Assembly: GCA_051382295.1 (NCBI GenBank)
Contig: JBBCAW010000089.1
Span: forward strand, 1-33,950
Length of the DNA stretch: 33,950 bases
Direction: 5' to 3'
Source of the DNA: Bdellovibrionota bacterium FG-1
Lineage (GTDB): Bacteria; Bdellovibrionota; UBA1018
The translations under genes and the position numbers were made by a program. Each line of letters opens with the position of its first letter. Within the stretch, counting starts at the first letter, position 1. The notes below the pieces were generated by a model. The model did no database searches, had not been told where the DNA came from, and saw only the letters and a list, made by a program, of their open reading frames with translations. This document shows positions 5,327 to 32,509 of this stretch, piece by piece.

Positions 5327-5345
5327 CCTGACCCCTTCACTGTTC

Positions 5346-5464
5346 GTATTTTCGGCGAGGGTGTCGGGGTCGGTCATCCCCCTTTGCAGCACCTCCTATG
5401 CTGCAAGTGCCCTTTTGGGCACTCGGGCTTCTCGAACAATCCTGTTCTCGAAGTGCCTCCGCGC
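5346..5464 (-). repeat. Triple-hairpin intergenic element (family member B)
   Basis: Hairpins at 5385-5405, 5406-5423 and 5428-5453. 5439-5453 is the exact reverse complement of 36-50, and 5375-5384 of 3108-3117. Confidence 0.8.
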
Positions 5465-6516: not shown

Positions 6517-6638
6517 ACTTCAAATGCAGTTCTACCGGCCAGGTGTGCAAAGGCAAGCAGAAAAGTCGGGGGTAAGCAGGCTAGCTCGCCTCGAACTCCT
6601 TGGGCCAATTGAAGGTGTCGCATCATGAACTTTCTTGT

Positions 6639-7838: not shown

Positions 7839-7840
7839 GC

Positions 7841-7873
7841 TTTCAAAATTCCACGAATTTTGAAATATGTCAA
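7841..7873 (-). promoter_or_regulatory. Promoter with an 11-bp perfect dyad ahead of the AAA ATPase
   Basis: TTGACA at 7873-7868 and the dyad TTTCAAAATTC-CAC-GAATTTTGAAA at 7841-7865. No Shine-Dalgarno before ATG 7838. Confidence 0.6.
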
Positions 7874-7885
7874 TAGTGTCAACAG

Positions 7886-7940
7886 GAATTCTCGGCGAGG
7901 GTGCCGAGCGGCGTTAGGCCCAGGGGCTGAATCCAGCGCA
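7886..7940 (-). repeat. Palindromic intergenic element (family member C)
   Basis: ATTCTCGGCGAGGGTGCCG matches ATTTTCGGCGAGGGTGTCG at 5348-5366. Confidence 0.55.
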
Positions 7941-7985
7941 TGTGCTCTGGTCCATCTACGATAGAGACAGACGATTCCAGATCTT

Positions 7986-8303
7986 TCACTGCCCCTTAAA
8001 AGCCTTTGCGGAATCAATCAGGTGGTGGGCCTCCTCACCTAGGTTTTCAAATACATAAGGGTTAAGAAACTGGCGACTACCCAAGAGTTTCCGGTCGATG
8101 GTGTTAAGCTCGGCCAAGTCACAAACGGCGTCCCAGTTCTTAACCATTTTCTTTACCTGATTTTCAATTAAATCAAGCGCCTGTTGCCTAGAAAGTAGAA
8201 ATATACCGGCGGCGTCGAGGCAGGATGCGATCTGACTTTTATTATTGCCGTCCAAAATCAGCATGGCCTGCGTAGCTACATTTCCTGAGCGCGCTTGTGG
8301 GCA
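7986..8303 (-). pseudogene. HipA-like kinase toxin, C-terminal fragment
   Basis: CPQARSGNVATQAMLI..CLDAA..FLLS..WDAVC..DRKLL..RQFLNP resembles HipA C-termini. The kinase core is missing. Confidence 0.7.
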
Positions 8304-8318
8304 CCGCTTTGCCGGAGC

Positions 8319-11204: not shown

Positions 11205-11271
11205 GGGCTTCAAATACCAGACTTTATTTCGAACGCAACCGGGAAGTCCGAATATTCTTACGCGGATCCCG

Positions 11272-12660: not shown

Positions 12661-12716
12661 TTTTCGTTCTCCCTTCTTGTTGAGTTGGAATCAATAACAG
12701 AGTGGCGATGATCGCG

Positions 12717-12881
12717 GTATTCTTCGAGTGGTAACGCACATCGGTGACCCGGGCCTCCGCGCGAAAAACGCGAGCGGGTATTCTTTCGCCCTAGCCGAGG
12801 GTCTTTTGCGTGGTGGGGTTGGGTTGGAGTGGGGGGTGAGCGGGGTTTACTGCCTGAGCGCGGCAGCTCGGGGCGCTGGGT
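12717..12881 (-). repeat. Palindromic intergenic element (family member D)
   Basis: 12829-12881 matches 270-322. It contains GGCCTCCGCGC..AAAACGCG and two GTATTCTT..CGAG(T/G)G end motifs. Confidence 0.8.
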
Positions 12882-12923
12882 GGCCTCCAGCAAGGCAAGA
12901 ACGATTGACTCCCTGCATTCTCA

Positions 12924-16875: not shown

Positions 16876-18597
16876 TCATGTCCAAGGGATGATGATTACG
16901 CTATTTGCGAGCCCGCTTTGCACCCTACGAATCTGCTCCACTTCGTGGTGGGCACGGCGGGCGAGAATTGGATCTCGAGTTTGGGTGCCCGCAAGGCACT
17001 GATTGATCACCCAGGCATAGGGTTCAATTTCTGCTCGTCGGAGATCCTTTTGAAGCGCTTCGGCTTCGCTCACGGGTGTTGTTTCGGGAAGTGTAACGAT
17101 CAGGAGTTTTGTATACTTAGGATCTTTGAGGCGCATCATGGGTGTCGTCACATGAGATGCCGAAACAGCGCCGTGGCTAAACTTCTTCATCACTTCCCGG
17201 TGGTACGACCCGGTAGCATCCAGCAGAAGCAGAGTGTGACCGGTCGGGGCAGTATCAAGCACTACAAAATGATCACGAGCCTCGCTCACGATTCGAGAAA
17301 AGGCGCGGAACACAGCGACTTCTTCGGTGCAAGGGGAGCGCAGATCCTCCTTGAGAAGAGCCAATCCCTTTTTGTCGAGACCCTTGCCCGAGCTAGCGAC
17401 AACCTGATCAATATATTTTTGAGTTTCAATCTTCGGATCAATCCGACTTACCGTGAGACTCGAAAGTCGCTTTTCTCCAGCCAGAGTCGCCTCCAAGTGG
17501 GCGGCTGGGTCAGTGGTAGTCAGATGAACCGGGTGGCCCCTTGAGGCGAGTTCGCTGGCGATGGAGGCCGCAATCGTTGTTTTACCAACGCCACCTTTGC
17601 CCATCACCATGACCAGGCATCGTCCATCCATGATAATTCCATCAACCAGTTGCCCAATGGACAAGGTTCCGGTCGGCATCGCGACGAGCAAATCGGCCTT
17701 AGTCTCAAGCTCATCGTCTTTAAAGAACGCCCGCAATGCTTGAATCCCAACCATGTTGTAGGGCTTGAGATAAAAAACAGAACGCTCCTTTGAGGCCAAA
17801 GTCGGCGGTAGGTTTTTTAAGGCGTCATTGGCACGCTCTTCAAACGCCAGCGCGACTCGATCACTGCGGTTTGTTGCCCTAAATACGGCATTGATCGCCA
17901 GCTGCTGATTTTGAAGTCCAATTCCATCAAGCTCATGGCTTGTGCGTTCGGCTTCCGCTATTGCGACGGAGTCTGGTCGAGTAACTAGAATCACGGTCGT
18001 ATCTTTTTGATTGCGAAGGGTATTGACCGCCTGCTCGTAACGATCCCGCTGATTATTGAGAGCCGAACTCGGCCCAAGACAGGATGCGCCATGAGTCGAG
18101 GTCGTCAGAAAATCTTTCCAGGCGGAAGGAAGACTCAGGAGTCTGAGGGTGTGCCCGGTCGGGGCCGTATCGAAAATGATGTGATTGAATTTAGAGGTTA
18201 CCTGATCGTTCAGGAGTAGGCTGGTGAATTCATCAAAGGCCGCAACCTCCACAGTGCAAGCGCCGGAAAGTTGCTCTTCCATGTCTCGAATCGAGTCGGG
18301 TGGAAGCACTCCGCGATAGGGTCCAATAGAACGCTCCCGATAAGCTTTGGCAGCGGCTTCTGGGTCAATATTCAGGGCAAACAGATTTGGAACTTTTGGA
18401 ATCGCGATGGGCTCAGCAGTCAGGCGCACCCCTAATACTTCGTCGAGGTTTGAGGCCGGATCGGTACTTACCAAAAGAACTTTTGCGCCGCGATCGGCCA
18501 GGGTCACTGCCGTGGAGCAAGCTAGCGATGTTTTCCCAACACCGCCCTTACCGGTAAAAAACAGAAATCGAGTGGGCGCGTCTACAAATCCATTCAT
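16876..18597 (-). CDS. arsA: Arsenical pump-driving ATPase
   Basis: Two GKGGVGKT P-loops, two DTAPTGHT signatures and Cys ligands (SGAC, SCLGP, SPCTEE). The C-terminus may be slightly clipped (PWT*). Confidence 0.96.
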   Translation of the reverse strand: MNGFVDAPTRFLFFTGKGGVGKTSLACSTAVTLADRGAKVLLVSTDPASNLDEVLGVRLTAEPIAIPKVPNLFALNIDPEAAAKAYRERSIGPYRGVLPPDSIRDMEEQLSGACTVEVAAFDEFTSLLLNDQVTSKFNHIIFDTAPTGHTLRLLSLPSAWKDFLTTSTHGASCLGPSSALNNQRDRYEQAVNTLRNQKDTTVILVTRPDSVAIAEAERTSHELDGIGLQNQQLAINAVFRATNRSDRVALAFEERANDALKNLPPTLASKERSVFYLKPYNMVGIQALRAFFKDDELETKADLLVAMPTGTLSIGQLVDGIIMDGRCLVMVMGKGGVGKTTIAASIASELASRGHPVHLTTTDPAAHLEATLAGEKRLSSLTVSRIDPKIETQKYIDQVVASSGKGLDKKGLALLKEDLRSPCTEEVAVFRAFSRIVSEARDHFVVLDTAPTGHTLLLLDATGSYHREVMKKFSHGAVSASHVTTPMMRLKDPKYTKLLIVTLPETTPVSEAEALQKDLRRAEIEPYAWVINQCLAGTQTRDPILARRAHHEVEQIRRVQSGLANSVIIIPWT

Positions 18598-18618
18598 AAA
18601 ACCTCCAGAACGGCTTGA

Positions 18619-19008
18619 TCAGCCGCAACAGTCTTCCTCGGATTCACAGCAGGACTCGTCGCCCTCTTCTTGTTCGGTATCTAGCGGTGTTTCGAACGCA
18701 ACACCAAACGCAGCTAGCGCCGACTGTAGATCGCCTCGTTGGGGGTAGAAGCCGCTCGCCAAAACTCTTCCATTCGCCAGGATTAAGGGAAGGCAAGAGT
18801 TTCCGCGCGCATCCAGCTCCTGCTTGACGGGGATCGAGTCGACGAAGGCTTTGGGTTGCTGTGCCATGTTGTACCGCACGACATCTACATTGTTACGCTT
18901 GAGCCATTCGAGGTCTCCGGCAAAACGGGCGAGCTTCGGATCAACTTCAGGACCACAGACGCCGGTTGAACAACACATGGGCGGATCAAATACTTCAAGT
19001 TTTAGCAC
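18619..19008 (-). CDS. arsD: Arsenite metallochaperone
   Basis: FDPPMCCSTGVCG and C-terminal CC pairs. GTG start at 19008 with AAGGAG RBS. Confidence 0.93.
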   Translation of the reverse strand: MLKLEVFDPPMCCSTGVCGPEVDPKLARFAGDLEWLKRNNVDVVRYNMAQQPKAFVDSIPVKQELDARGNSCLPLILANGRVLASGFYPQRGDLQSALAAFGVAFETPLDTEQEEGDESCCESEEDCCG

Positions 19009-19064
19009 TATTTTATACTCCTTGATTACCGGGGTTTTCGCCGGAATTGATAAGGACAGATGTT

Positions 19065-19409
19065 TTATATTCCTGCCACTAAAACCTTCAGGCGCCTGAG
19101 TCCGCGAGGTTCGACGCAATAACACACTGCGGTGCCTTCGGTTTCACCTTTGATCAGGCCAGCCCCTTTGAGAACTTTAAGATGCTGGGAAACCGTGGAC
19201 TGAGCCAAATCCTCAATTTGGTCCACAATTTCGCCACAGATGCAGCTTTGCCGCCGAGCCAGGAGTCTGAGAATCTGAATCCGTGCTGGATGCCCAAGCG
19301 CTTTAGTCATTAAAGCGAGTTCTTCGTCTGCTTTTTTCCCCTCGACCGGCCTAAGATCGTGTTCTGGTGCTTTAGTGTCGCAACAATGAGCGTCTTTTAA
19401 TTGCTTCAT
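19065..19409 (-). CDS. arsR: ArsR/SmtB transcriptional repressor
   Basis: KALGHPARIQIL..CICGEIV..AQSTVSQHLKVLK..YC. Confidence 0.93.
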   Translation of the reverse strand: MKQLKDAHCCDTKAPEHDLRPVEGKKADEELALMTKALGHPARIQILRLLARRQSCICGEIVDQIEDLAQSTVSQHLKVLKGAGLIKGETEGTAVCYCVEPRGLRRLKVLVAGI

Positions 19410-19419
19410 GCCTTCTTTT

Positions 19420-19435
19420 ATCGTTAAAAGACGAT
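19420..19435. promoter_or_regulatory. Putative ArsR operator
   Basis: ATCGT-N6-ACGAT dyad just upstream of arsR. Confidence 0.55.
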
Positions 19436-19501
19436 GAATACAATCTATTTTAACTGGGGTCTATCCACCCAATACAGTCTATTGCCGAGAAGTTATTCCT
19501 C

Positions 19502-19533
19502 TTGACCCCGTACCCTGGTACAGGGTGTATGAT
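19502..19533 (+). promoter_or_regulatory. MerR-type long-spacer promoter
   Basis: TTGACC-20 bp-TATGAT with the dyad ACCCCGTACC-CT-GGTACAGGGT (9/10) across the spacer. Confidence 0.88.
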
Positions 19534-19539
19534 CGAGGT

Positions 19540-20001
19540 ATGAATCAGGAAGTTGCCTCTCAATTGACCATCGGACGACTGGCGAAGGCCGCAGGGGTCG
19601 GAATCGAAACCGTCCGTTTTTACGAACGCAAAGGGCTTTTACGTAAGCCAAGTGCTCGGTTGGGGGCGTTTCGTGCTTATTCACCCCAAGACGTCGATCG
19701 GGTGCAGTTTATCAAGAGGGCGCAAACGGTCGGATTTACCCTTCGTGATATTGCAGATTTGCTGCGACTTGAGGCTGGAAGTGGGCTGACGTGTAGTCAG
19801 TTGCTGACAGCGGTTTCTACAAAACTCACTGACATTCAATCACGCATTCTGGATCTCAAGAGAATGGAAGCTGCGCTTAAAGAATTGGAAGGCTGCTGTG
19901 CGGCGCAACCCTCTTCGAGAAAACCCACTTGTTTTTTGACGACCTGTTTTAGCAAAGAAGATCAAGCGACCCAAAATGTCAGGAAAGGAAAGAAAAAATG
20001 A
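19540..20001 (+). CDS. Metal-responsive MerR-family regulator
   Basis: LTIGRLAKAAGVGIETVRFYERKGLL, Cys at TCSQ and a C-terminal CC..C..C. Likely start is ATG 19540. Confidence 0.93.
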   Translation: MNQEVASQLTIGRLAKAAGVGIETVRFYERKGLLRKPSARLGAFRAYSPQDVDRVQFIKRAQTVGFTLRDIADLLRLEAGSGLTCSQLLTAVSTKLTDIQSRILDLKRMEAALKELEGCCAAQPSSRKPTCFLTTCFSKEDQATQNVRKGKKK

Positions 20002-20261
20002 TTATTAAAATTCTCGGCCCCGGCTGCGCGAATTGCAAACGTCTGATGGCCCAAACCCAAGAAGCGATTAAGACCCTCGGCGGAGAGTGGTCCACGGCTG
20101 AGCTAAAAAAGGTTGAAGATTATGAACAAATTGCCTCTTACGGGATTTTGTCAACACCTGGGCTCGTGCTCGATGAGGTAGTACTCATGAATGGCCGCGT
20201 TCCGAATTCGAAGGAAATCGTGGAGCTGCTCAAAACTGCCAAGTCATCAGGGCCTTGCTAA
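19998..20261 (+). CDS. Small redox-active disulfide (thioredoxin-like) protein
   Basis: IKILGPGCANC..YGILSTPGLV..GRVP. Confidence 0.9.
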   Translation: MIIKILGPGCANCKRLMAQTQEAIKTLGGEWSTAELKKVEDYEQIASYGILSTPGLVLDEVVLMNGRVPNSKEIVELLKTAKSSGPC

Positions 20262-20270
20262 GGGGTATTT

Positions 20271-21353
20271 GTGGAAAACACTGACATGCCAAATCGGCAC
20301 TCATTACCCGTCAAACAGCTACTAGCTGCCGTCGTGGCACTGGTGGCCTGGGTAGTCCTTTACGAGAATTTGGCGCGGATTTCTCACTGGTTGACCTATC
20401 AAGTTTTACATTTGCCGGTGGGAAGACTTGCAGCAGCGATCGAGTTTTTTGTATTCGAAGCGCCCAAGGTCCTCCTTCTTTTGACGGTGGTCGTGTTCTG
20501 CATGGGCATCATCCGGTCGTTCTTTTCTCCGGAACGAACTCGCGCTATTCTGGCGGGTAGAAAGGAGTCTGTTGGCAATGTCTTGGCGGCACTTCTAGGA
20601 ATCGTTACTCCGTTTTGCTCTTGTTCGGCAGTGCCACTCTTTATCGGTTTCGTGACAGCTGGAGTGCCGTTGGGCGTGACGTTTTCCTTTCTCGTATCCG
20701 CCCCGATGGTGAACGAAGTGGCTCTCGTGCTTCTCTTTGGCATGTTTGGTTGGCGAGTCGCGCTGATTTACTTGGGGACTGGGCTTCTGGTAGCGATCCT
20801 TTCAGGGTGGGTCATAGGCAGGCTTAAGCTTGAACGTTACGTTGAGGAATGGGTGTACCGCACTCAAGCTCCAACCGTCGCCGGCGTCGCGGACGTGAGT
20901 ACTTGGATTACGCGGTTGGACTATGGCCTCAGTGAAGTTCGAGAGATCGTCGGCAAGGTATGGATCTATGTACTGCTCGGAATTGCGGTTGGCGCAGGCA
21001 TTCATGGTTATGTCCCCGAGGATTTTATGGCCTCATTGATGGGGAAGGAGTCTTGGTGGTCGGTTCCATTGGCGGTTATCGTCGGCGTACCGATGTACTC
21101 AAATGCGGCAGGGATCATTCCCATCGTAAAAGCGCTGCTCGAAAAAGGAGCGGCTTTGGGGACCGTCCTTGCTTTCATGATGTCGGTGATTGCGCTGTCG
21201 CTTCCAGAAACGATTATGATGAAAAATCCCGCCAAAAGGGTTGCCGCGAAGCCGACGAAGACACGGCTTTTGAAAGTGGAAAATAGCTTCACCGCATCAA
21301 TCTCCTTGTGCCAAATAGGTTGCTTCTATTGCAACAGCCCCGCCATAACGTAA
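20271..21353 (+). CDS. ArsP/DUF318-family permease, probably with its C-terminus replaced after about 21222
   Basis: TPFCSCSAVP, SAPMVNE, GVPMYSNAAG and LSLPE. The final transmembrane helix is absent and an unrelated tail follows. Confidence 0.85.
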   Translation: MENTDMPNRHSLPVKQLLAAVVALVAWVVLYENLARISHWLTYQVLHLPVGRLAAAIEFFVFEAPKVLLLLTVVVFCMGIIRSFFSPERTRAILAGRKESVGNVLAALLGIVTPFCSCSAVPLFIGFVTAGVPLGVTFSFLVSAPMVNEVALVLLFGMFGWRVALIYLGTGLLVAILSGWVIGRLKLERYVEEWVYRTQAPTVAGVADVSTWITRLDYGLSEVREIVGKVWIYVLLGIAVGAGIHGYVPEDFMASLMGKESWWSVPLAVIVGVPMYSNAAGIIPIVKALLEKGAALGTVLAFMMSVIALSLPETIMMKNPAKRVAAKPTKTRLLKVENSFTASISLCQIGCFYCNSPAIT

Positions 21354-21418
21354 GCACTAGGCTGAAACCGCTGAGCCATCGATACAACTGGATCGCGATT
21401 TGCATTAATGCATCAAGT

Positions 21419-22576
21419 ATGAGGATTGGCATTGTTGGCGGTGGAATTGGCGGTCTTTCTGCGGCGATTTGTCTTTCCAAGATAGGAATAGAAGTTGAAG
21501 TTTTTGAAAGGGCGTCGGAGATCCGTGAAAGCGGCGCAGGCGTGAGTCTTTGGCCCAATGCCACGCGGGTTTTGGCACAAATGGGCCTGCTTCAGAAGTG
21601 TTTGGCGAAGAGCGTACCCCTTTCGTCCCTTGAACTGAAAAATCTTCGGGGAAAGATTTTGCTCCATACACGGATCGACCAAGAAGAAACTCCGGTGCTC
21701 TGCATGCGTCGACCCGATCTCTTGGCAATTCTGCACGCGGAAGTCTCCGACAAGTCGATTTTCTTGAATCACAACTGTAAGAAGATAACGGCTTTAGAAA
21801 AGAAAGTTGCCATTGAGTTTGAGGGGCAAGAGGCCCGAGTATTTGACGCGGTTGTAGGGGCTGACGGAGCCAGATCACGGGTAAGAGCTTACGTGACCGG
21901 CTTAACGCAAGAACCCGTCTATCGCGGGTATACGATATGGCGCGGGGTTACTGAGTTTGACCTGGGCGCACACTCGTCGAACATGACTCAGGAAATCTGG
22001 GGAAGTGGGCGGCGTTTCGGAGTTCTGCCGATTGGAGGAAAAGTTCTTTGTTGGTACGCAACCGACACGAGACCCAAGGATCAGGATGATTCTTCTAGAA
22101 ATCACGAGTCCGAGCTCTTGAGGCTCTTTAGTGGGTGGCCGGATCCAATACTAGAGATCATTCGGACGACTCCACCGCATGAAATCCTAAAAAACGACGC
22201 AGCCGATCTCGGTCTTCGAGGACCGTGGTTCAATCATAACGTAGCAATCATTGGTGATGCCGCTCACCCCCTTACACCCAACGTTGGACAAGGCTGCTGT
22301 CTTGCGCTTGAAGATTCCTGGGTTCTTTCTCAATCGCTGCAAAAGACCGGCGAACCAAACAGGATAGAGCGGGCCTTCGAGCTCTTTGGACGCGTTAGAC
22401 GAAAGCGAGTACCCGCGATCGTAAGAACCACGCGATGGATCGGATCAGTTGCACAGACCAAAAGTAAGTCTGCCGTTCTTATCCGAGATCAGCTGCTCCG
22501 GGCGTTTTTTCCTCTGGTTTTTGACTTGGCCGTTCGACCCATCCATCGCTACGACGCTACGAAACCGTTCTCATAA
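21419..22576 (+). CDS. FAD-dependent monooxygenase (aromatic hydroxylase)
   Basis: IVGGGIGGL, VGADGARSRVR and IGDAAHPLTPNVGQG. ATG at 21419. Confidence 0.93.
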   Translation: MRIGIVGGGIGGLSAAICLSKIGIEVEVFERASEIRESGAGVSLWPNATRVLAQMGLLQKCLAKSVPLSSLELKNLRGKILLHTRIDQEETPVLCMRRPDLLAILHAEVSDKSIFLNHNCKKITALEKKVAIEFEGQEARVFDAVVGADGARSRVRAYVTGLTQEPVYRGYTIWRGVTEFDLGAHSSNMTQEIWGSGRRFGVLPIGGKVLCWYATDTRPKDQDDSSRNHESELLRLFSGWPDPILEIIRTTPPHEILKNDAADLGLRGPWFNHNVAIIGDAAHPLTPNVGQGCCLALEDSWVLSQSLQKTGEPNRIERAFELFGRVRRKRVPAIVRTTRWIGSVAQTKSKSAVLIRDQLLRAFFPLVFDLAVRPIHRYDATKPFS

Positions 22577-23535
22577 TCGCCCAAATCTCGCGATGATGGT
22601 TCTCTTTTTTTCAGAAGGCACCCGTAAATGGTTAGCCCAGGCCCAAAGGCGAGACTGACTACCAAAGTTCCTTCACGGATCGCTTTATCCTGCAAAATTT
22701 CATTCCAAATATGGGGGAGCGTTGCCGACGACATGTTGCCATACTCAAAAAGAATTTTTCGGCTCGCGGCGACTTGAGTGTCCTCTAGTTTAAGAAGGCG
22801 TTGTGCAGCATCAATGATTTTTGGTCCACCCGGGTGAATTGCGAATACAGCCGAGTGCCTAGCGTTCATGTAGTCGAGGCCACTTATTTTGAAGAGACGA
22901 AGCAGAAAATCGGATAGCCCCTTCATCACTTTTTCAGGAACCTCCCGAGAAAGTGTCATGCGCATGCCCGCTTCTGAGGGGGTCCACGTCATGTCAGACT
23001 CACTGTCGGGCAGAATCTCATCTGCGATCGCAATCACTTCAAGGCCACAGTACTCGGAAGAGCCGGTCTCGAGCGAGTACTTTACAAAACCATCAGCAAA
23101 AAGACTTTGAACCACGAGTTGTTCGGGGCTGTGGTCTGAGACATCCAAGTGGAGACTACAGACTTCGGTATGTACAATATCCACGCGCTCCGATTGTTTA
23201 GTTAGGCCCCGCGCAATTCGAACTGCCGGGATCGCCGCGTAACACCCCATGTGATAGGCATGCAGCACTGAAGTCTTGCTTCCCCATCCGCGCTCGCTCA
23301 CAAGCCGCTGCGCCGAACTCGGAGAAGCATAGCCGGTACAAGTGACATGGATGAGATGGGCCGGGACGTCGGCGTCTTGCGCATCTTGCACTTCTGGCGT
23401 TTTCTGGAGATAAAAGCGCTTGAAGATGTCCCCGGTAATCTGATTGTATTTTTGGGTGCGTTTCGAGATGACTCCGTAGGCTTCGAAGATTTCGAACAAG
23501 TATTGGACGAGTGTATGCTGCGCGGGAGCATCATT
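22549..23535 (-). pseudogene. Type III polyketide synthase, 5'-truncated
   Basis: The catalytic triad motifs HMGCYA, IHPGG and YGNMSS plus AFGPGL are present. The 5' end abuts a plus-strand fragment. Confidence 0.8.
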
Positions 23536-23952
23536 CTTCTCGTCACGGCCTTTCATCATGTTTCCTCTGCTAACGCGCGCGATTTTCTGGAACGGTCGGC
23601 GCGGGCGGGTGCGAGTGTCCTGGTTGTTGAACCGCTCGATAGAAACTTGAAGGGAATCGTTCTGGGGGGATTGCTCTTTCTTCCGGCACTTCTTTTTCCG
23701 ATCCGCACATTGCTGCGAAGCTGGCCTGGCTTGGGGCGTTGGATGCGGCTAGCCGCATTTCACTGGGTCATACCGCTTATCCCATTTTTTCTATCCCACG
23801 ATGGTATTGTCAGTGCGCGGCGGCAGCGCACTTCAGACGATTGGGACGCGCTGATTCATGGGTTGCCTTACGAACTCATCATTCGTCCAAACCTCGGGTT
23901 GATGAGAAATTTCTCGGTGGTCTTGTTGAAAATGTCCGAAAAATCGCAGTAA
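23530..23952 (+). pseudogene. Class I SAM methyltransferase-like C-terminal fragment
   Basis: TAFHHVS..ARDFL..VLVVEP..HDGIVSARR. The SAM-binding N-terminus is missing. Confidence 0.65.
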
Positions 23953-23971
23953 GTAAGATCGGGGCGCCGAA

Positions 23972-24448
23972 CTATTCCTCTTCTTTGATCTGGGCAGCCA
24001 AGTAGTTCTGGATTCCGGTCTGCTTGATTTGGTCGAGTTGTGCTTCAAGGCAGTCAATATGGCTTTCTTCGTCTTTGAGGTTTGAAGTAAAAAGTTCGCG
24101 GGTGCCGTCGTCACTCAATTCTAGGGTGAGTTTGATCGCTGAGTTGTAGAGCCGGACCGCATCGTACTCAGCCTTGACGTCGGATTCAAGCTGCGTTTTG
24201 ACGTCCTCGCCAATGTGGAGTTCCTTGAGGCGGCTAACGACAGGTTTGCCTTCGAGGAAAAGGATTCTTCCAATGATAGCTTCTGCGTGTTTCATTTCCT
24301 GGATGGCCCGTTTCTCAATTATTTTGTGAAGACGGTTATAGCCCCAGTTGGCGCACATTTCCGAATGAACCATGTACTGATTGATAGCGGTCAGCTCATC
24401 GGCTAGTAATTCATTTAAAGACGCGATTACCTTGTCGTTGCCTCTCAT
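23972..24448 (-). CDS. bfr: Bacterioferritin
   Basis: MRGNDKVI..LADELTAINQY, EMKHA..RILFLEG and DEESHID. Confidence 0.96.
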   Translation of the reverse strand: MRGNDKVIASLNELLADELTAINQYMVHSEMCANWGYNRLHKIIEKRAIQEMKHAEAIIGRILFLEGKPVVSRLKELHIGEDVKTQLESDVKAEYDAVRLYNSAIKLTLELSDDGTRELFTSNLKDEESHIDCLEAQLDQIKQTGIQNYLAAQIKEEE

Positions 24449-24824
24449 AAAAAGTTTCTCCATTAGCTTCAAAGGTTATTCTCATCAATGAATAGCAATT
24501 TTCAGACCAGGACAGATAAGTGTTTTGTACGTGTAAAGCGACCGACAGAACTGGGGTGCCATAGGGCACATCGAAATCCCAGGGATATCCGCGTAGACCT
24601 TCGCCAGCGTCCCGGGAGCTGCCTCGGCCCCCAGCAAAGATGTGGTTTGAACGGGCTATACTCGTCTCATTTTCGGACTGATTGACCTAAAAACAGCCAA
24701 ATCATCGCAAAAATAGCCGAAAAATGGCCAAAAAACTATGGCATTGAATTCGCTTTGAGTGTGTCTGCCAAATCGGACAGAGTAGATGGAGCTACCTCCT
24801 TCCCCAAAGAAAGAGGTAACCCCG

Positions 24825-25310: not shown

Positions 25311-25416
25311 CGCCCACGCGATCACCGCCACCGCCGACCTTGTCACCCGCTTGGGCGATGAGAGGAAAACTACCCGTGAGGGCCGCGACAATAATCGCTA
25401 AATTTACATATTTCAT
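25213..25416 (-). pseudogene. Secreted 'GGGGD'-motif protein, 3'-truncated
   Basis: MKYVNLAIIVAALTGSFPLIAQA-GDKVGGGGD, translationally coupled to the TIGR02147-type gene. Confidence 0.55.
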
Positions 25417-26294
25417 TGGGATTCTCTTTCTTTCTTGGGTTTTGTGAGCGGAAAAAATTGTACGTTCATTTGGTAGACCGAATCCTTGGCTCCGTCTTGG
25501 GTCAGGGCTAGGATCTCGTCTTGGAGGCGGTCGATCTTGTCTTTAATCAACTCGAGATGCTCTGGAGCACAAGCGAAGGTAATGCCGTTGATGAGTCTCC
25601 GAGAAAAATCGGCATCTGAGGTCTTCTGTAGTTCCTGGGAAGCTTTCTCAATCATTTGCTGATGAAATTTTCGAACTGCGAATTCTGAGCGGTTGGTTTT
25701 GACGTAGAAGCTTTGACGGGTTCGCCTCAGTCGCCCTTCCGGGTCCTCTTGCAGGAGTCCAATCGCAATCATCCGCTCGATCGCGCTCCGCGCTTCGGCA
25801 GTCGTGATTCCAAGACGATGGGCGATCTGGGCGGGTTGGCTTTGAAAATCATCGAGCGTCACCAAGTTGAGGATGGCCAGGTGATGCCAGTTTGCCATGG
25901 CTCTAAACTGCTCGATCTCTAGGGTCGTATAGGTGGCAGCCTGATTTGTCGCGACCGCCTCAGCTACTTTCCTTTCCAGCCTGGCTCGCACTTTCATCGA
26001 TATCTTGGCGTTTTTAGAGGAGGCCTGAAGCACAGATAATAGCAAGACGTTGGACTCTGGCTCCTTCAAAGCCAGTGCCTCCGAAACCTGAGCCGCAAAC
26101 TTGAGAGTCATGGGACGCGTGCCGGAAAGCACTCGAGAGAGCAGAGAAACTGAAGCGCCAAGATCACGCGCAAATGCGCTCATCGAGTACGAAGGGTTTC
26201 TTTCGCGGCGGGATTGGAAAACCTCGAGGAGGTAATCTGCCGGGCGCTTTGCCGCGTGTTTGATTTGGTCACCTGGTCCGTTCATAGCGAGCAT
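25413..26294 (-). CDS. TIGR02147-family protein (HTH + DUF4423)
   Basis: RNPSYSMSAFARDLG..LSRVLSG, WHHLAILNL, RKFHQQMI and VYQMNVQFFPLT. Confidence 0.88.
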   Translation of the reverse strand: MLAMNGPGDQIKHAAKRPADYLLEVFQSRRERNPSYSMSAFARDLGASVSLLSRVLSGTRPMTLKFAAQVSEALALKEPESNVLLLSVLQASSKNAKISMKVRARLERKVAEAVATNQAATYTTLEIEQFRAMANWHHLAILNLVTLDDFQSQPAQIAHRLGITTAEARSAIERMIAIGLLQEDPEGRLRRTRQSFYVKTNRSEFAVRKFHQQMIEKASQELQKTSDADFSRRLINGITFACAPEHLELIKDKIDRLQDEILALTQDGAKDSVYQMNVQFFPLTKPKKERESQ

Positions 26295-26699
26295 TAAATA
26301 GCCTGTTATGACACGATGTGTAATTCATTTGGATCTAAAGTGTTGTCAAATTGAAAATACTAGTAATATTAAAGTGTTAAGGTCTAGAGATCCTTTCAGT
26401 GGCCTATTGACGGTTTCGTCCTTTTTCAGCTTAACGTATTCGCGATCAGATTGGCTCTACAGACGGCAATTTCTGAAATAGACGAAGCATCTTTACCGGT
26501 GGAACACCTAACGGGTTCTAAGTAAAATGGCCGAACCGAATAGTTGCAGGGCCCCTTAGAGCGCGAAGCTCTGAGGGAACGGAGGGCGCGCGTATGATTT
26601 CGGATGGTTTTATAACTTTTGGAATTTGCCGCCCTAGAATCTTACGTCCTTTTGTCTCAATTAGGGCGATAAGTCTTTTGTGATCATGGGGGTTCTGTT

Positions 26700-27614
26700 A
26701 TGCTAATGGAGCATAATAACGGCAGCCACCGAGGGAAGAAAATGGTTCCGCAGGACACCGGGCAAAACAAAACTATCCTTGCAGTAGACAGTAATCCAGA
26801 TGTTTTACAAATGATTTCAGAGTATTTCGCAAACACCCACTACGAGGTGGTCACCGCCGAAACCGGTGACGCGGCGAAAACGGCAATGCGTACTCGTGTC
26901 CAGAATCAACCACCCATACTTCTACTGAATTTGTCGGTCGGCGCTGAAAGTGGCTCCGACTTAGCCGAGTTCCTCGTTGAACATCATGCAGTGGCGGGCA
27001 TAATTCTCACGTCCCAGGCCTTCAATCCTCGTGAGGGTGTCCAATCTCTAATCGAAAAATGCGAGACATTCGACATTCCATTTTTTGAACTCACCACGCC
27101 CTTAAAGGGGGTGGACCTCGATTATCTCCTCGATCGAATCGAGCTTCACAAAGACGCCCCGGACCAACATACCGTCGAGGCCGCCGTGGCGCGCGCGATT
27201 TATCGCCGGCGTTTTACTTATCTCTATGCCGGAAGGCCCGGTAATATTTTACGAAAAGCACGCGAAACATTCGGACTTGATATCCCGGCGTTTACCGCAA
27301 TCGCTCGTGCGAATGACTTGCCCATCTCCGATGAATTCTACACGGAATACGAACAACACGATAAATCGGGCGAGCGCATTTCAGCCACTCATTGGTTTTA
27401 TCTCTGCGAGCTGTTGGAAATTTCAACCGACAGCATCAGTTTTGGGTATTGCGAACGGCTCCACCTGGGACGCATTCGACATGCAATCAACGAGGACACT
27501 ATTCGACTGCCCGTATCGGACGATCTCAAATCGCGTTTAGAGGCGTTGCGAAAAATGGAAGAGAAAGAGTCCAAGGAGTTTGAACGGGCGTTTTTCCAGC
27601 CCCGGACACATTAA
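26700..27614 (+). CDS. Pseudo-receiver domain plus XRE-like HTH regulator
   Basis: Receiver fold ILAVDSN..ILLLNL with Asn at the phospho-Asp position. C-terminal LRKARETFGL..ISATHWFYLCELLEI..SFGY. Confidence 0.7.
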   Translation: MLMEHNNGSHRGKKMVPQDTGQNKTILAVDSNPDVLQMISEYFANTHYEVVTAETGDAAKTAMRTRVQNQPPILLLNLSVGAESGSDLAEFLVEHHAVAGIILTSQAFNPREGVQSLIEKCETFDIPFFELTTPLKGVDLDYLLDRIELHKDAPDQHTVEAAVARAIYRRRFTYLYAGRPGNILRKARETFGLDIPAFTAIARANDLPISDEFYTEYEQHDKSGERISATHWFYLCELLEISTDSISFGYCERLHLGRIRHAINEDTIRLPVSDDLKSRLEALRKMEEKESKEFERAFFQPRTH

Positions 27615-27838
27615 AAGCACGGAAGATCAGCAAACCCTGCTGTCTGTGAACGCCGATCACTTGACTCTGACCGCACTATCCTCGATGCAGGGTGACTCCG
27701 GGATTGAACAACAGGCGCCTCTATTTGAGGGTGAATACCTGCGCACACTTCGTGAATCAGGTACCCTTCTTTCCTACAATAAATTTTTTTAAGAAAATCA
27801 CTCAAGCTTTGCGGCTTCATGACGAATAGTAAATGAGT

Positions 27839-27860
27839 TTATATAACAAAAGTTATAAAA
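27839..27860. promoter_or_regulatory. Dyad upstream of the acyltransferase, partly repeated at 26608-26621
   Basis: TTATATAAC-AAAA-GTTATAAAA. CAAAAGTTATAAAA (27847-27860) is the exact reverse complement of 26608-26621. Confidence 0.5.
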
Positions 27861-27874
27861 GATGGGGTTTCTAT

Positions 27875-28663
27875 ATGAAAGTCACGCCAATAGACGCGCC
27901 ACTCCCCTTGGACGGCATCAACCGAAACTTAAGAGTTGTCGTGCTCGACTGCCCCTACGACACCATCCAGAACGAGCAAACTCAGGGTTTATTTGCAAAA
28001 CTTGCCGCACTTAAAATAGCAGGCTATCAAGCAGAATACCCCTACGGCGCACTTCCCTTGGATACGACCGACTTTATTGCCGTTCATCTTCTTCTCTGTG
28101 AAGAGCGCTCAGGAAATCTACTACCATTAATGGGCTTCAAATCGGTCACAGCCAAACGCTGCGCGATTCACAATATTCCTTTCCCAGCCCACGGGGTTCT
28201 TCGTGGAAACGATCTTCCTGAATATGAAAAAGCGCTTGACGAGATCATTTCCACATCGAGAAGTAAGGGCCAGGAAATCGCGTACAATAGTTCTCTAACG
28301 GTTCATCCAGATGCACGACACGACAAGCAGCTCCGCCAACTATGCACCGACATGACGGTCGCGCTTTTTGTCAAATATTACCAAGAATATAAAATACCGA
28401 ATGTCATCGCCGCAGCGACACTGCGATTTAAGGTGCAGGTGGTTAAGGAATTTGCGGGTTTTGAATATTTGTCGCTAAACGGTTCACCGCTTCCGCCCTT
28501 CGATTGTAAACCCTTCTTTGGTGAAAAGGTCGCTCTCATGCATTTGCGTCAGTTCCGTGATGAGGCAAAGTTTTGGGCCAATCGCTACTCGTGCCTCTGG
28601 GACAACCGCCTGACTATCTCCACACAAAAGAAGATCGTACCATCAATAGCCGAAGCCGCTTAA
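27875..28663 (+). CDS. LuxI/FeeM-like GNAT-fold acyltransferase (putative signal synthase)
   Basis: LFAKLAALKIAGY..LPLDTTDFIAVHLLLC..MGFKSV parallels the LuxI R..F..W..D.FD..hll..R pattern. The call is by eye only. The start is 27875 or 27833. Confidence 0.55.
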   Translation: MKVTPIDAPLPLDGINRNLRVVVLDCPYDTIQNEQTQGLFAKLAALKIAGYQAEYPYGALPLDTTDFIAVHLLLCEERSGNLLPLMGFKSVTAKRCAIHNIPFPAHGVLRGNDLPEYEKALDEIISTSRSKGQEIAYNSSLTVHPDARHDKQLRQLCTDMTVALFVKYYQEYKIPNVIAAATLRFKVQVVKEFAGFEYLSLNGSPLPPFDCKPFFGEKVALMHLRQFRDEAKFWANRYSCLWDNRLTISTQKKIVPSIAEAA

Positions 28664-29589
28664 ACACACAGCGCGTGACTTTCGCGCATTTTGCGGATGA
28701 CTGGCAAAAAGTCGAGTTCAAAGCGACAAAGTCCATCCCCTGCCGACACACATTTTGTTTTTTTTACCTCAATCGTCGGAAAGTTCAAATAACCTGGGAT
28801 AGAGGCCATAAATCCTGTGCGCACCAAACAACCGACCCTGCTATTGATGTAATTGGCACCGATTACCGGAATTAACTCCCGATCCGGCACACCATCAATT
28901 GAACAGGTCGTTGCATCATGGAAGCGGATACTCCACTTGAAGTTTTTCTCGATATATTTTTCAAGCACGAACTCGCACATCATCTCAAAAAGCTCGCGAA
29001 GATTTCGTGCTTTCTGTAGTTCAATACCCATCGGGGAGTTCCGGTGCGTGTTGACGGCATTCCTCCCCATCTCAACAAGCAATTGCTCATTGCGATACTG
29101 CTTCAACACCCACGATCCAATGTCAACGGATAGGCGCAGGTTGATCGGAGCATCCGGATCGGTGAACATCGCCTCCGTCATCTGGAATCGCCGCAGGATT
29201 TGTAGTCTGCGCTCCCAGCCCAGGCGTTGCTCGACGTAATCCAGCAGATTCACCACAGAACGACGCTTACTGCTCGCGCCGTAAACATATTTCTCCGGTA
29301 TATAGCACTCGTTTCCAAAAAATTGCCGCGAAAGCGCGACGTAGTCGATGGCATTCGTTACGAGCGAGTCAAATCCGACGTTGATTACCTCCGCCAGCGC
29401 CATGGTCGAACGAATGAGGGGCTCCACATTGCGGGTTTTGAGATTCGTAAAATCCCGGCTTGTCAGCCGCATCAAGTCCGCCATCGCGGAGTCGCTCAGG
29501 GAAAGCGTCTCCTGAATGCGATTCAGCGTCTGCCATACTGGCGGTAGTGCTGACCTCGCTAAGAGGTCAGATTTATTTCGTACAGACAT
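28660..29589 (-). CDS. XRE-HTH plus V4R/HNOB-like ligand-binding protein
   Basis: N-terminal HTH and a C-terminal V4R signature (GCLVRTGF..VKKTKCVSAGDGLCRFEL). Confidence 0.7.
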   Translation of the reverse strand: MSVRNKSDLLARSALPPVWQTLNRIQETLSLSDSAMADLMRLTSRDFTNLKTRNVEPLIRSTMALAEVINVGFDSLVTNAIDYVALSRQFFGNECYIPEKYVYGASSKRRSVVNLLDYVEQRLGWERRLQILRRFQMTEAMFTDPDAPINLRLSVDIGSWVLKQYRNEQLLVEMGRNAVNTHRNSPMGIELQKARNLRELFEMMCEFVLEKYIEKNFKWSIRFHDATTCSIDGVPDRELIPVIGANYINSRVGCLVRTGFMASIPGYLNFPTIEVKKTKCVSAGDGLCRFELDFLPVIRKMRESHALCV

Positions 29590-30440
29590 CTTTTCATCCC
29601 CTTAAAATGGCACTCGATCTCTCGTACGCCAGCCGCTGAACCACCAACGTAACGAGTAAACCGCTTAACATACTCCTTCTTGTAATCGCACAGGAATGAA
29701 CCCAGGCTCGCACCCTTGTAGTCAAAATACTTCATTTCTGGCGAAGGTGTGACCGAAAGTGTCAGAAGATCGGCTTTTTCATCGCAAATCGCGTAAGAGA
29801 AGTTTGACTCGTATTTTGTGATATGTCCGAGCAGACTGCGCAAAAGCTGTTTTTTGGTGGCAGCGTGAACGTATTCATTATGCAGCCGACCGTGCATTTC
29901 AGCGGTGTCCAGCGGTTTTGTCATAGTGGCGATTTCGTCCCTCTTCAGATTTCCGCTCTCTATCAACCAGGTCACGAGTTCCAAATTGAAACGAATGTTT
30001 AATTGGTTGTCGTAAATGACAAAAAAATCGGGGTCGATATTGAGGTGTTTAAAATACTCCAATAGGCGTGCCTCCCCCAGTTTATCCGCGAAGAATCTTA
30101 TGAGTGGGCGAATGGCCCGCACCTTCGACCCCTGATGTCGCAGGTACTTTTGGGGAATCTTGAATCGGCTCTCCGGATATGTGGGTTCTGACGTAGCAGC
30201 CGAACAATTATCGATGAACCCCGACTTGTAGGAATGCTCGGATTCAATTCCAAACGCCTGGCAAAGTCGAAACCACTGCGAAGTCGATGGCATTAAGATG
30301 CCAGCTTCGATTTTTGACAGGGCTGCCTGAGACACTTGAAGAAGATTTGCGATGGTTCGCTGATCCTTCCCGATCAACTTCCTCCCTGCTCGAATCACTC
30401 GTGCTGTGCGTACTACATCTTGTTTTTCCTGCGGGGTCAC
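29559..30440 (-). CDS. XRE-HTH plus V4R/HNOB-like ligand-binding protein, paralogue
   Basis: IRAGRK..QRTIANLLQVSQAALSKIEAG, a KIPQKY..GSK linker (YIPEKY..SSK in the neighbour) and FLCDY..VREIECHFKGMKRCLYEI. GTG start with GAGGAAGG RBS. Confidence 0.75.
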   Translation of the reverse strand: MTPQEKQDVVRTARVIRAGRKLIGKDQRTIANLLQVSQAALSKIEAGILMPSTSQWFRLCQAFGIESEHSYKSGFIDNCSAATSEPTYPESRFKIPQKYLRHQGSKVRAIRPLIRFFADKLGEARLLEYFKHLNIDPDFFVIYDNQLNIRFNLELVTWLIESGNLKRDEIATMTKPLDTAEMHGRLHNEYVHAATKKQLLRSLLGHITKYESNFSYAICDEKADLLTLSVTPSPEMKYFDYKGASLGSFLCDYKKEYVKRFTRYVGGSAAGVREIECHFKGMKRCLYEINLTS

Positions 30441-30769
30441 GGGCCCTTCCTCTGAAGAAATAGATATTGTCTTCGATATAGCACTCTCATTTTGTCACGT
30501 CATGCCGAGATTTAAGATGGTGTGAAAAATCGTCTGTCTTCAAAAAGATTTCACCCCAATGGGAAAACCTATTTCGTGTCGGCGCCTACCAAAAAGGTTG
30601 CCTCCATCTTATCCCTCGACGTATGGGCTAGAGCGGCTTCGGCTGGTGTGGTCGGGTTGTTTGGCATGTGGCGCTTGGTTTTTAGGAGTTACAGAGGAGT
30701 TAGGACGAAAAAATAGCCATCCAGTCTCCTGAGTGGCTCTGCCTTAATGCATTGTTTTTATAGATTTTT

Positions 30770-31172
30770 TTGATTGGAGCGACCCCAATGGGTTTGGCGA
30801 TGTCTTGCAAGGCGTATTCGACCTCGACCTTATTGTTTGATTTACAGAGAAGCAGCCCAATACTTGGGCTGGTCATCTGGGTGCTTGAACTTGTCGTTGA
30901 TCACCGAAAGATAGAAATTGAGCTTGCCCGCGAACTCCGGCGCAAATGGGACTGTTTTTGGCTCAATGACCACAAAGCACAAGAGTCAGATGGTAAAAAA
31001 GCAAATCGACGTAGAAGTCCTTATTGCCGACATTAAGATGAACCTGGCGCCCCACGAATGCAAAGCCGACTCCAAGTTCAAGTAGGAACTTCTGGACGTG
31101 ATCGACGAGCCCCTGTTCGAGTTCTTGCTCCTTGGCCTCGGAAGCCAGGGTCAAAAAGTCGAAAATATAGGG
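30770..31172 (-). pseudogene. YhcG/DUF1016 PD-(D/E)xK nuclease fragment
   Basis: PYIFDFL..FLLELGVGFAFVGRQ..DLLFYH, a frameshift near 30980, then FVVIE..AGKLNFYL..SIGLLLCKS..VEYAL..PIGVA. Confidence 0.9.
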
Positions 31173-31497: not shown

Positions 31498-31911
31498 TCA
31501 GATCGGGGCAATTTGTGCATCGAGCTTGGACTCAACGTAGGCTTTGGCTTCTTCTACGGTCTTCTTCGCGAACTTCGAGTCCGTAACAGAGAGGGCCTTG
31601 GACCGGTACGAGGCGACATTTTTCAGTTTCAGTACATTGATGCAGTCTCTGGCAAGGCTCTTGAAGTCGGTGATCCCAATCCCATTCAATTGTTTGTGAA
31701 GGATCGTAGGAGCGCCCTCGTGACCATCTGAGCTCAAGTCCTTGCCAAATCGATTGACGGACAGAGCATCGAGATAATTTATTAAGGCGATGCAAAAATT
31801 GGTGACCGCAGCGTCAGAGTCCTTCTCTTTGTGTGACCAATTCGCCACCTTTTGATGCTGGTGGCCTTTACTCAAATAGCTGCTGAACTCCGCTTTATCA
31901 ACGGCTCGCAT
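31498..31911 (-). CDS. HEPN-domain protein (putative toxin)
   Basis: Helical, 137 aa, with SDGH and KNVASY (a variant of the Rx4-6H/Y motif). Overlaps the MNT gene. Confidence 0.7.
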   Translation of the reverse strand: MRAVDKAEFSSYLSKGHQHQKVANWSHKEKDSDAAVTNFCIALINYLDALSVNRFGKDLSSDGHEGAPTILHKQLNGIGITDFKSLARDCINVLKLKNVASYRSKALSVTDSKFAKKTVEEAKAYVESKLDAQIAPI

Positions 31912-32509
31912 TCTGTTTCCTTTCCCAAATCGGGATGCCTTCAGTTTTTACGTTCTTTAGATAGCGTCTCCCCATTGCTGAGTCATATTTCGCCTGTGTT
32001 TCGATTTGAAGATTAACCTTCAGTCCTACTTCGTTTCCGGCAGCCACCAACACCGAATTAAGTTCGAACTCCAGATCTGGGCTTTTCTTGGAAACGATAA
32101 CCAATAAATCGATGTCACTCGTGACCCTGAACTCGCCTCTCGCTGCGCTTCCAAATAGGACTACTTCCTCCACGGAGCTTCTCGCTTTTGAGGATAGTTG
32201 GTTCATTTGCCCTTTTATCCATTCGGGTAAAAGGCGCTGTTCTGCCGAGACGATTTCCTTGAGAAGTCTATTGGCGATTAGGGATGCCTTGTTCAGCGAA
32301 TAGACCGCAGATTTTCCGTGGCGCTCTTCATCCAGAACTCGTAGCTTAACGAGGTCAGGGATGTAGCGACTTACAGTGTTTTGGGGCGTTTTGATACTTC
32401 GAGCAAGCTGTGTCTGATTTTGACGCAGATCTGGGTTTCTTATGAAATACTGAACGATCTTCAACTTTACTTCAGGGTATAAACAAACATTCAGTATGCC
32501 GGTTGCCAT
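31898..32509 (-). CDS. wHTH plus minimal nucleotidyltransferase (MNT antitoxin)
   Basis: N-terminal wHTH (QTQLARSIK..TVSRY) and LFGSAARGE..SDIDLLVI. Confidence 0.88.
   Translation of the reverse strand: MATGILNVCLYPEVKLKIVQYFIRNPDLRQNQTQLARSIKTPQNTVSRYIPDLVKLRVLDEERHGKSAVYSLNKASLIANRLLKEIVSAEQRLLPEWIKGQMNQLSSKARSSVEEVVLFGSAARGEFRVTSDIDLLVIVSKKSPDLEFELNSVLVAAGNEVGLKVNLQIETQAKYDSAMGRRYLKNVKTEGIPIWERKQNASR

Follow-up and report, generated by a model that had tools for sequence, protein, structure and literature searches.

A candidate LuxR-independent acyl-signaling module built on XRE-H-NOX/V4R regulators in Bdellovibrionota

Genes at the locus

The window analyzed here is a contig of 33,950 nucleotides (JBBCAW010000089.1; C89 in our numbering) from the 4.44-Mb, 97.7% complete genome of Bdellovibrionota bacterium FG-1 (GCA_051382295.1). 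It encodes a putative acyltransferase whose gene converges on two genes for paralogous regulators, termed A and B, and we ask here whether the three form the core of a chemical signaling circuit. An interpretation made from the DNA letters alone (the sequence-only reading) had proposed a module of four intact genes, in which a LuxI-like enzyme produces an acyl signal that is received by a pair of helix-turn-helix (HTH)-V4R proteins rather than by LuxR. Fold, gene linkage, predicted A:B pairing and an operator-like palindrome argue for a circuit of this kind, with two changes: one of the four genes falls outside the module, and a second enzyme, overlooked at first, usually accompanies the synthase in related genomes. 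The four genes are as follows.

27875-28663, + strand: LuxI/FeeM-fold acyltransferase of an unnamed family, 262 aa, with an in-frame upstream ATG at 27833; proposed N-acyl amino acid synthase
28660-29589, - strand: B-type regulator, in which a degenerate XRE HTH precedes an H-NOX/V4R-fold domain; proposed to be the main ligand sensor
29559-30440, - strand: A-type regulator, with a canonical XRE HTH and a homologue of the B domain; proposed operator reader
26700-27614, + strand: pseudo-receiver-HTH gene, PF00072 receiver plus XRE-like HTH; local accessory or possible target, outside the conserved module

All four reading frames are open across these positions, that of the synthase from either ATG, and the genes are contiguous and intact as first read. 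The synthase probably starts at 27875, which matches a 262-aa database protein. Its gene and that of B share the TTAA at 28660-28663, giving the 4-bp tail-to-tail overlap noted earlier, and the A and B genes overlap by 31 bp. The surrounding region had been called fragmented; gene fragments do exist (YhcG, 30963-31154; an epimerase, 2491-2916), but the description was overstated, as the window also holds long open reading frames (ORFs) with family matches, among them arsR-arsD-arsA, SNF2 and a type III polyketide synthase (PKS)-like gene. The absence of LuxR extends beyond the window, as no LuxR autoinducer-binding domain (PF03472) was found in the whole genome, and the E. coli control was positive. 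Scans for sigma-70 promoters and terminators gave only chance-level results.

Contig C21 of this genome carries another trio, diverged (23-31% identity) and arranged in the same way, and contig C71 has an A gene by itself. Directly upstream of the second synthase copy lies an IS200-family transposase gene (L001:7689-8162, corresponding to G000:C21:89688-90161), which may have displaced the promoter or operator of that copy. The lone A-type regulator (L002:8659-9528) closely resembles the A copy of C21; it lies upstream of what we take, from the translations, to be an allantoate amidohydrolase-like gene and near presumed pyrimidine-degradation-like genes.

A synthase family with the LuxI/FeeM fold

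The AlphaFold2 model of the synthase is confident (predicted local distance difference test [pLDDT] 93.9). Compared with 48,161 chains, it matches RpaI best (Z 15.8, root-mean-square deviation [rmsd] 3.1, 195 residues aligned), followed by FeeM (2g0b; Z 15.4, rmsd 2.9, 179 aligned) and LasI (Z 15.3, rmsd 3.0, 178 aligned), three matches that we regard as tied; the best generic GNAT reaches Z 14.5 over 146 residues. Foldseek likewise places LasI and FeeM first. The LuxI/FeeM-like fold suspected from the sequence is thus borne out by the predicted structure. Sequence searches of solved structures, whether with the synthase alone or with a 150-row profile, returned no significant match, so the fold assignment rests on the model.

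By sequence, the family stands apart from its structural neighbors. The synthase has no Pfam match even at E 1, and its NCBIfam match is at chance level. Among 150 aligned relatives, none matches the LuxI families (PF00765, PF17327) at E 0.05, none matches the FeeM-side families (PF21926, PF13444) and one matches a generic GNAT model (E 0.004). The family comprises 647 clusters at 50% identity. Atlas neighbors carrying PF21926/PF13444 score 0.90-0.91 against the synthase, which we treat only as a lead; the genome's own PF21926 match, on contig C22, is a gene other than the synthase.

Individual residues lean away from LuxI. Eight plasmid-encoded LuxI proteins retain R25, F29, W35, E44, D46, D49, R70, E101 and R104 (TraI numbering). 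In a weak profile alignment (hhalign probability 1.1%), K47, Y51, D63 and D66 of the synthase fall opposite TraI R25, F29, D46 and D49, and all four are near-invariant among the 150 relatives (K or R at position 47 in 150, Y or F at 51 in 150, D63 in 130, D66 in 149). K89 may be the counterpart of R70. Opposite E44, the alignment places a proline, P61, found in 138 of the relatives. The E-x-x-R motif is absent: strand 4 (135-143) has no conserved Glu or Arg and, in the register that we infer for it, reads Y-x-x-S-W-T (Y137 in 143/150, S140 in 122/150, W141 in 104/150, T142 in 140/150).

Two paralogous regulators with H-NOX/V4R-like sensor domains

A and B are paralogues (21% identity over 203 aa, E 6e-9). 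The HTH of A matches HTH_3 (E 1.8e-8), and the V4R profile (PF02830) matches both window copies weakly (E 0.04 and 0.22; 14.6 and 12.1 bits against a cut-off of 31) and homologues better (E 6e-7 to 5e-5). In the B model (pLDDT 93.4), residues 14-80 form an XRE domain that matches XRE repressors and residues 107-300 form the sensor domain. The latter most resembles H-NOX (4u99; Z 16.1, rmsd 3.0, 179 aligned), followed by the ligand-bound N-terminal domain of VirS (Z 12.9), Bet3 (10.4), the phenol sensor PoxR (8.3), CdpR (8.2) and DmpR (7.8). An Atlas search with the A sensor domain reached V4R clusters at 0.77, again only a lead.

The paired XRE HTH and V4R architecture described earlier holds, for the HTH in both proteins and for the H-NOX/V4R fold in the B model, but its cysteine signature is not a family-wide feature. 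Each window copy keeps three cysteines; across the family, C-x6-8-C occurs in 12/59 A and 39/86 B proteins, and E-x-x-C-x6-8-C in 10/59 and 24/86. These Cys and Glu residues are presumably the zinc site of V4R sensors. A conserved His is absent from 87 B-type rows, the best His column in A reaches 29/60, and YxSxR occurs in only 1/59 A and 1/86 B proteins. Taking the proximal His and YxSxR to be the heme-binding motifs of H-NOX, neither regulator type keeps them, judging from these alignments.

The two paralogues differ in conservation. Mean top-residue frequency in the HTH is 0.52 for A versus 0.31 for B, and in the sensor domain 0.36 for B versus 0.30 for A. B is the regulator closest to the synthase in 48/53 loci having both types, and pairwise identity of its sensor tracks that of the synthase more than A does (rho 0.33 vs 0.12 across 46 loci; a soft test). 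The better conserved HTH of A, together with the proximity and tracking of B, suggests a division of labor in which A would read DNA and B would read ligand.

Structure prediction supports the notion that A and B can pair, a check proposed in the sequence-only reading. The predicted A:B complex scores 0.65, versus 0.12 for the best control; in a benchmark, this level was reached by 116/157 solved pairs and 2/215 mismatched pairs. Prediction runs share at least 80% of contacts, with partner pLDDT of at least 83, and the modeled interface is formed mainly by the final HTH helices, the one with WFRLC among them. Because A and B are paralogues, the score does not imply a preference over homodimers.

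The module recurs across Bdellovibrionota

Synthase profile matches occur in 96/401 genomes of the phylum. We sampled 100 neighborhoods, which cover 102 of the 103 rows matched outside this genome. With the C21 copy this makes 101 regions; 98 contain a main-cluster synthase ORF and were counted, leaving out two fragments and one more distant GNAT. An A or B regulator lies within 5.5 kb of the synthase in 87/98 loci, far above chance, and is convergent within 1 kb in 73/98. Both regulator types are present in 55/98, and the exact gene order of the window in 30/98. The gene-neighborhood conservation anticipated for the pair of synthase and HTH-V4R genes is thus observed. Histidine kinases are found in 36/98 loci and small XRE genes in 19. 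Among the recurrent neighbor clusters annotated, from a scan of 20 out of the top 45, no exporter was found.

Other partners are enzymes. A class I S-adenosylmethionine (SAM) methyltransferase is encoded in 43/98 loci and a ThiF adenylyltransferase in 39/98, and the two are nearly exclusive of one another: 42 loci have only the methyltransferase, 38 only ThiF, one has both and 17 have neither. In a quick tree of the synthases, they alternate inside strongly supported clades (ThiF in L088 next to methyltransferase in L091, and likewise L066 next to L070), and branches marked as well supported force at least 7 and 4 changes. That two unrelated enzymes have replaced one another repeatedly suggests a shared function. 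At four ThiF-type loci (L054, L057, L059, L064), a cysteine-synthase-like pyridoxal phosphate-dependent enzyme is encoded downstream of ThiF and may supply an unusual amino acid acceptor.

A hydrolase is encoded in 60 loci. In 19 it is AidH-like, and 18 of those carry the methyltransferase; a second hydrolase group occupies 30 loci, 23 of them with ThiF. One AidH-like member tested against PDB 4g5x gave E 4e-33 with the nucleophile aligned. The protein in 4g5x is the acyl-homoserine lactone (AHL) lactonase AidH (PMC3532132).

The synthase of the window belongs to a clade of 18 rows, nine with the methyltransferase, five with neither enzyme, one with both and three unlabelled. A cognate-family methyltransferase is present elsewhere in the genome (C21:110683-111558; 301 bits, member range 138-363), 19 kb from the second trio, and the best ThiF of the genome scores 105 bits against a family-member minimum of 207. 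The genome is of the methyltransferase type, and its product would probably be methyl-esterified, in trans.

A candidate operator

A dyad, ATTC-N6-GAAT, lies upstream of 16/98 synthases (expected 1.9) and 12/58 A genes (expected 0.8); the best dyads in shuffled sequences reached 8-9 in the synthase set and 5-10 in the A set. The matrix derived from it describes a 16-bp palindrome, TATTCC-N4-GGAATA, hereafter the box. This matrix also finds sites before classes of genes on which it was not trained (kinases 12/47, methyltransferases 6/43, hydrolases 8/50). Sites number 60 in 206 kb of non-coding DNA versus 13 in 782 kb of coding DNA, training sites included, and column-shuffled matrices gave 0-7. 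Among held-out loci, from which two that repeat training loci were omitted, the box is present in three of six with a clear A gene (L003, with three sites of 19.5-23.8 bits, L012 and L173, but not L010, L171 or L179) and also in L184.

Box and A gene tend to occur together. The box is found in 28/55 loci with A versus 4/27 without it, counting 16 loci of a distant subfamily, none box-positive, apart. Moreover, the recognition helix of A contains Gln-Gly in 17/26 box-positive versus 1/26 box-negative loci (counted by eye). This covariation points to A as the protein that would recognize the box. Being symmetric, such an operator would suit a homodimer of A no less than an A:B pair.

The A protein of the window has Gln-Ala in its recognition helix, and three candidate sites were noted near the module.

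27842-27857, no strand assigned: TATAAC-AAAA-GTTATA, candidate operator; a perfect palindrome 17 bases before the ATG at 27875
26612-26625, no strand assigned: ATAAC-TTTT-GGAAT, a hybrid site and weaker candidate operator, upstream of the pseudo-receiver-HTH gene; 6.7 bits, two in the genome, chosen post hoc
30466-30479, no strand assigned: weak box-like site upstream of A; only the AT..N10..AT frame is kept, with a negative matrix score

The first has the 6-4-6 geometry of the family box and agrees with it at 8 of 12 positions in the arms, despite a poor score with the family matrix, and is the only such palindrome in the 260-bp spacer. Its pattern, chosen after being noticed, occurs once in the window and in none of 100 shuffles, and its core of 14 bases is present at two places in the genome. 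The hybrid site combines one arm of the window type with one of the family type; the site upstream of A may be due to chance. A search for the closest relatives found none closer than 54%. Applied to the whole genome, the family matrix picks out 56 sites of at least 11 bits, mostly inside ORFs, so no regulon can be read from them.

In records labelled as Verrucomicrobia, and in metagenome contigs resembling them, the synthase family is accompanied instead by an acyl-CoA dehydrogenase and a LuxR-HTH regulator that lacks the autoinducer domain. The family box is absent from these loci, and GGGGA-n-CTCCCTA-like sites, a pattern chosen by eye, precede the synthase in five LuxR-HTH-type loci (two near-identical) of 135 scanned. 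Since another palindrome takes the place of the box, the synthase seems to move together with a regulator and operator dedicated to it. Seven loci (L004, L005, L007, L008, L167, L168, L180) carry this set: besides the acyl-CoA dehydrogenase and a LuxR-HTH regulator of 350-380 aa without PF03472, it includes a distant methyltransferase and the different palindrome. Their records, where named, are labelled Verrucomicrobia, and they could represent a second, undescribed circuit.

Neighboring genes and variant loci

The fourth gene of the original proposal, at 26700-27614, is real but not part of the conserved module. Its receiver domain matches PF00072 at E 1.5e-5, below the Pfam cut-off, with Asn77 at the phospho-acceptor position and Thr133 replacing Lys; these assignments use what we take to be the canonical receiver positions (phospho-acceptor Asp, Lys), and by them the protein lacks the Asp/Lys pair of response regulators. 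The similar HTH helix reported for it is confirmed, WFYLC aligning with WFRLC of A. Its HTH matches the A-type N-terminal profile at E 3e-6, but about ten generic XRE proteins encoded in the genome rank higher. Across 74 further genomes from the family, its matches cover a single domain only, and no full-length homologue was found there or beside any other synthase. We therefore rejected it as a core component; it may be a local target or modulator. Divergent from it is a TIGR02147/DUF4423 gene (25413-26294), likewise discarded as a module component: it has about a dozen paralogous matches in the genome and is absent among the recurrent neighbor clusters.

Elsewhere in the window, 4209-14816 resembles a defense island, with DUF6088 and a short AbiEii, UvrD-like, AAA-DUF4143, SWIM-SNF2, AlbA_2-HATPase and MORC-like ATPase genes. 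An arsenic-resistance-type cluster spans 16876-21353 (arsA, arsD, arsR, a MerR regulator, a thioredoxin-like protein and an ArsP permease). At 21308-24472, a flavin adenine dinucleotide (FAD) monooxygenase gene is convergent with the type III PKS-like (chalcone synthase) gene and a ferritin-like gene. At 31498-32509, an HTH-nucleotidyltransferase gene precedes a 137-aa ORF without a Pfam match, a layout that to us resembles MNT-HEPN pairs.

Variants of the synthase locus were also observed. The distant subfamily (L127-L143) has ThiF and a hydrolase together with a single V4R gene and small XRE genes that stand alone, the last perhaps a split form of the regulator; none of its members has the box. 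In L176:280-2607, L011:5179-8229 and P0010, the synthase domain is fused to TerB-like and cyclic-nucleotide-binding domains and is divergent from ThiF. At six loci (L014, L056, L108, L122, L131, L144), the synthase or a more distant GNAT lies beside a heme-oxygenase-like diiron enzyme (PF14518), in some instead of V4R genes, which would be another tailoring variant.

Discussion

The account that we consider the probable one, if by no wide measure of certainty, is an autoregulated intercellular circuit in which A and B respond to a capped N-acyl amino acid. The GNAT-fold enzyme would move an acyl chain from acyl carrier protein or coenzyme A onto an amino acid or amine. The second enzyme, found beside it in most loci, would cap the carboxylate, the SAM methyltransferase by forming a methyl ester or ThiF by ATP-driven ring closure as in oxazolones, leaving a neutral, diffusible product. 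This product would enter the heme-less H-NOX/V4R pocket, mainly that of B. A alone, or with B through their HTH domains, would bind the 16-bp palindrome before synthase, capping enzyme, hydrolase, regulator and neighboring kinase genes, and ligand would alter its occupancy. Finally, the alpha/beta hydrolase, by homology AidH-like in many methyltransferase loci, would cleave the ester or ring and reset the circuit. A capped N-acyl amino acid is a more likely product than a LuxI-type lactone because a methyltransferase or ThiF, and often a hydrolase too, normally accompanies the synthase in this family.

Several observations weigh against this account. Nearly half of the loci with A (27/55) carry no box, and in 65 box-negative loci no other dyad stood out, only AT-rich words; the loci are also related to one another, so p-values overstate the signal. 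In the window itself, the family matrix finds no strong intergenic site (the best near the module scores 6.7 bits), and the palindrome put forward there was picked post hoc. The locus has no adjoining capping enzyme or hydrolase, and a search of the genome, 97.7% complete, found no cognate gene of the ThiF, AidH-like or ABH1 kind, so for this locus both steps rest on relatives. NCBIfam matches of the methyltransferase all fall far below cut-off and do not resolve O-, N- or C-methylation. The score of the modeled complex may reflect a homodimer-like XRE interface between paralogues. Lastly, self-regulation by a product is also seen in clusters for metabolites that are not signals.

This last point underlies the strongest alternative, which we judge unlikely but worth serious attention: the regulators may sense a product or precursor inside the cell, as feedback on a lipid pathway without cell-to-cell signaling. 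The enzyme logic of the Tyz/Oxz and stieleriacine clusters agrees with it, and linkage, operator and hydrolase would all fit equally. Its difficulty lies in the neighborhoods, where recurring partners are mostly regulatory (two receptors, the histidine kinases, the small XRE genes); the annotated clusters scanned included no exporter; and a dedicated lactonase-like hydrolase would be more typical of signal turnover.

We regard as improbable that the enzyme is a true but divergent SAM-using AHL synthase, with HTH-V4R proteins replacing LuxR and the methyltransferase or ThiF acting on the acyl donor. The tie of RpaI and LasI with FeeM in the fold search would suit such an enzyme, as would the near-invariant K47, Y51, D63 and D66 (on the weak alignment), the lactonase activity of AidH, and the 17/98 loci that, like the window, have no second enzyme nearby. 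However, the LuxI-invariant E44, E101 and R104 have no counterpart in the family, their places being taken, in the register used for strand 4, by P61, Y137 and S140; no member matches PF00765; and a self-cyclizing enzyme would need no ThiF or methyltransferase partner, yet 81/98 loci have one. Least probable is that the regulators sense an outside cue (a gas via heme, redox or metal via cysteines, or a prey-derived lipid) and the synthase is merely an output gene, since the heme H-NOX domains that match B best, the three cysteines of each window copy and the V4R-profile matches in synthase-free genomes (200 versus 96 of 401 genomes; many weak) are set against a B without conserved His, the near-absence of YxSxR, variable cysteines, and a B sensor that tracks the synthase more than A does, as expected if it reads the product.

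The capped-signal circuit is best placed among known systems by its parts. With LuxI/LuxR (LasI, TraI, RpaI, EsaI/EsaR) it shares the synthase fold, a palindrome before the synthase, in part of the family an AidH-like hydrolase, and a convergent, overlapping synthase-regulator layout such as esaI/esaR in L150. It differs in lacking a PF00765 match, E-x-x-R and, in this genome, any LuxR autoinducer-binding domain; its putative receptors are instead XRE plus H-NOX/V4R proteins, often two paralogues, and a second enzyme usually accompanies the synthase. The sensor fold of B is common to VirS/CdpR-type AraC regulators and to the V4R sensors XylR, DmpR, PoxR and MsvR, but here an XRE HTH precedes it at the N-terminus, its gene is linked to that of a synthase, and the zinc-site cysteines are only partly kept.

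In the acyl-oxazolone pathways OxzAB and TyzABC, ThiF cyclizes N-acyl amino acids (PMC10404671, PMC12596934), and 39/98 family loci likewise place an N-acyltransferase beside ThiF. Here, by contrast, ThiF is a stand-alone protein of about 270-300 aa that is exchangeable for a methyltransferase and accompanied by dedicated regulators and an operator; the genome of the window has no cognate ThiF. None of the 20 recurrent clusters scanned is a nitroreductase-type oxidase of the Oxz/Tyz kind, although no search aimed at it was made. Stieleriacine clusters have methyltransferase and ThiF together, with methylation on the ring (PMC12479983), a contrast that leaves ester formation here as something we infer. 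The nearest conceptual precedent is N-acyl-cyclolysine (ACL) signaling in Bacteroidota (Linares-Otoya et al. 2025), in which, according to second-hand description, two enzymes are encoded beside a regulator whose occupancy changes with an N-acyl signal (PMC13080023; mention in PMC13419125). The two-enzyme, one-signal arrangement would be alike; by the same description, ACL uses LuxR-family regulators, versus XRE-H-NOX/V4R here. We found no description of the synthase/HTH-V4R module in the literature covered, which took in few subscription papers and did not extend to the ACL paper itself. The logic follows synthase-receptor circuits already known; what appears new is the synthase family, the architecture of the receptors, the operator and the interchangeable capping step.

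A bolder extension is conceivable, though we lean against it: LuxR-free quorum sensing throughout the phylum, through an XRE-H-NOX/V4R heterodimer of an operator subunit and a ligand subunit, with the two interchangeable cap chemistries acting as dialects, each with its own hydrolase, and the synthase re-wired to LuxR-HTH regulators in Verrucomicrobia.

According to one preprint, no acyl-HSL synthases are predicted in Bdellovibrionota. The synthase family described here is invisible to Pfam yet present in about a quarter of the phylum's genomes sampled, some of them assembled as a single contig, and points to undescribed chemical signaling in predators reported to lack LuxI-type enzymes. If our account is correct, heme-less H-NOX/V4R domains would join the receptors for self-made acyl signals, and methylation and adenylation would substitute for one another within one pathway. 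With a candidate enzyme pair, receptor, operator and off-switch in hand, predator-predator signaling becomes directly testable.

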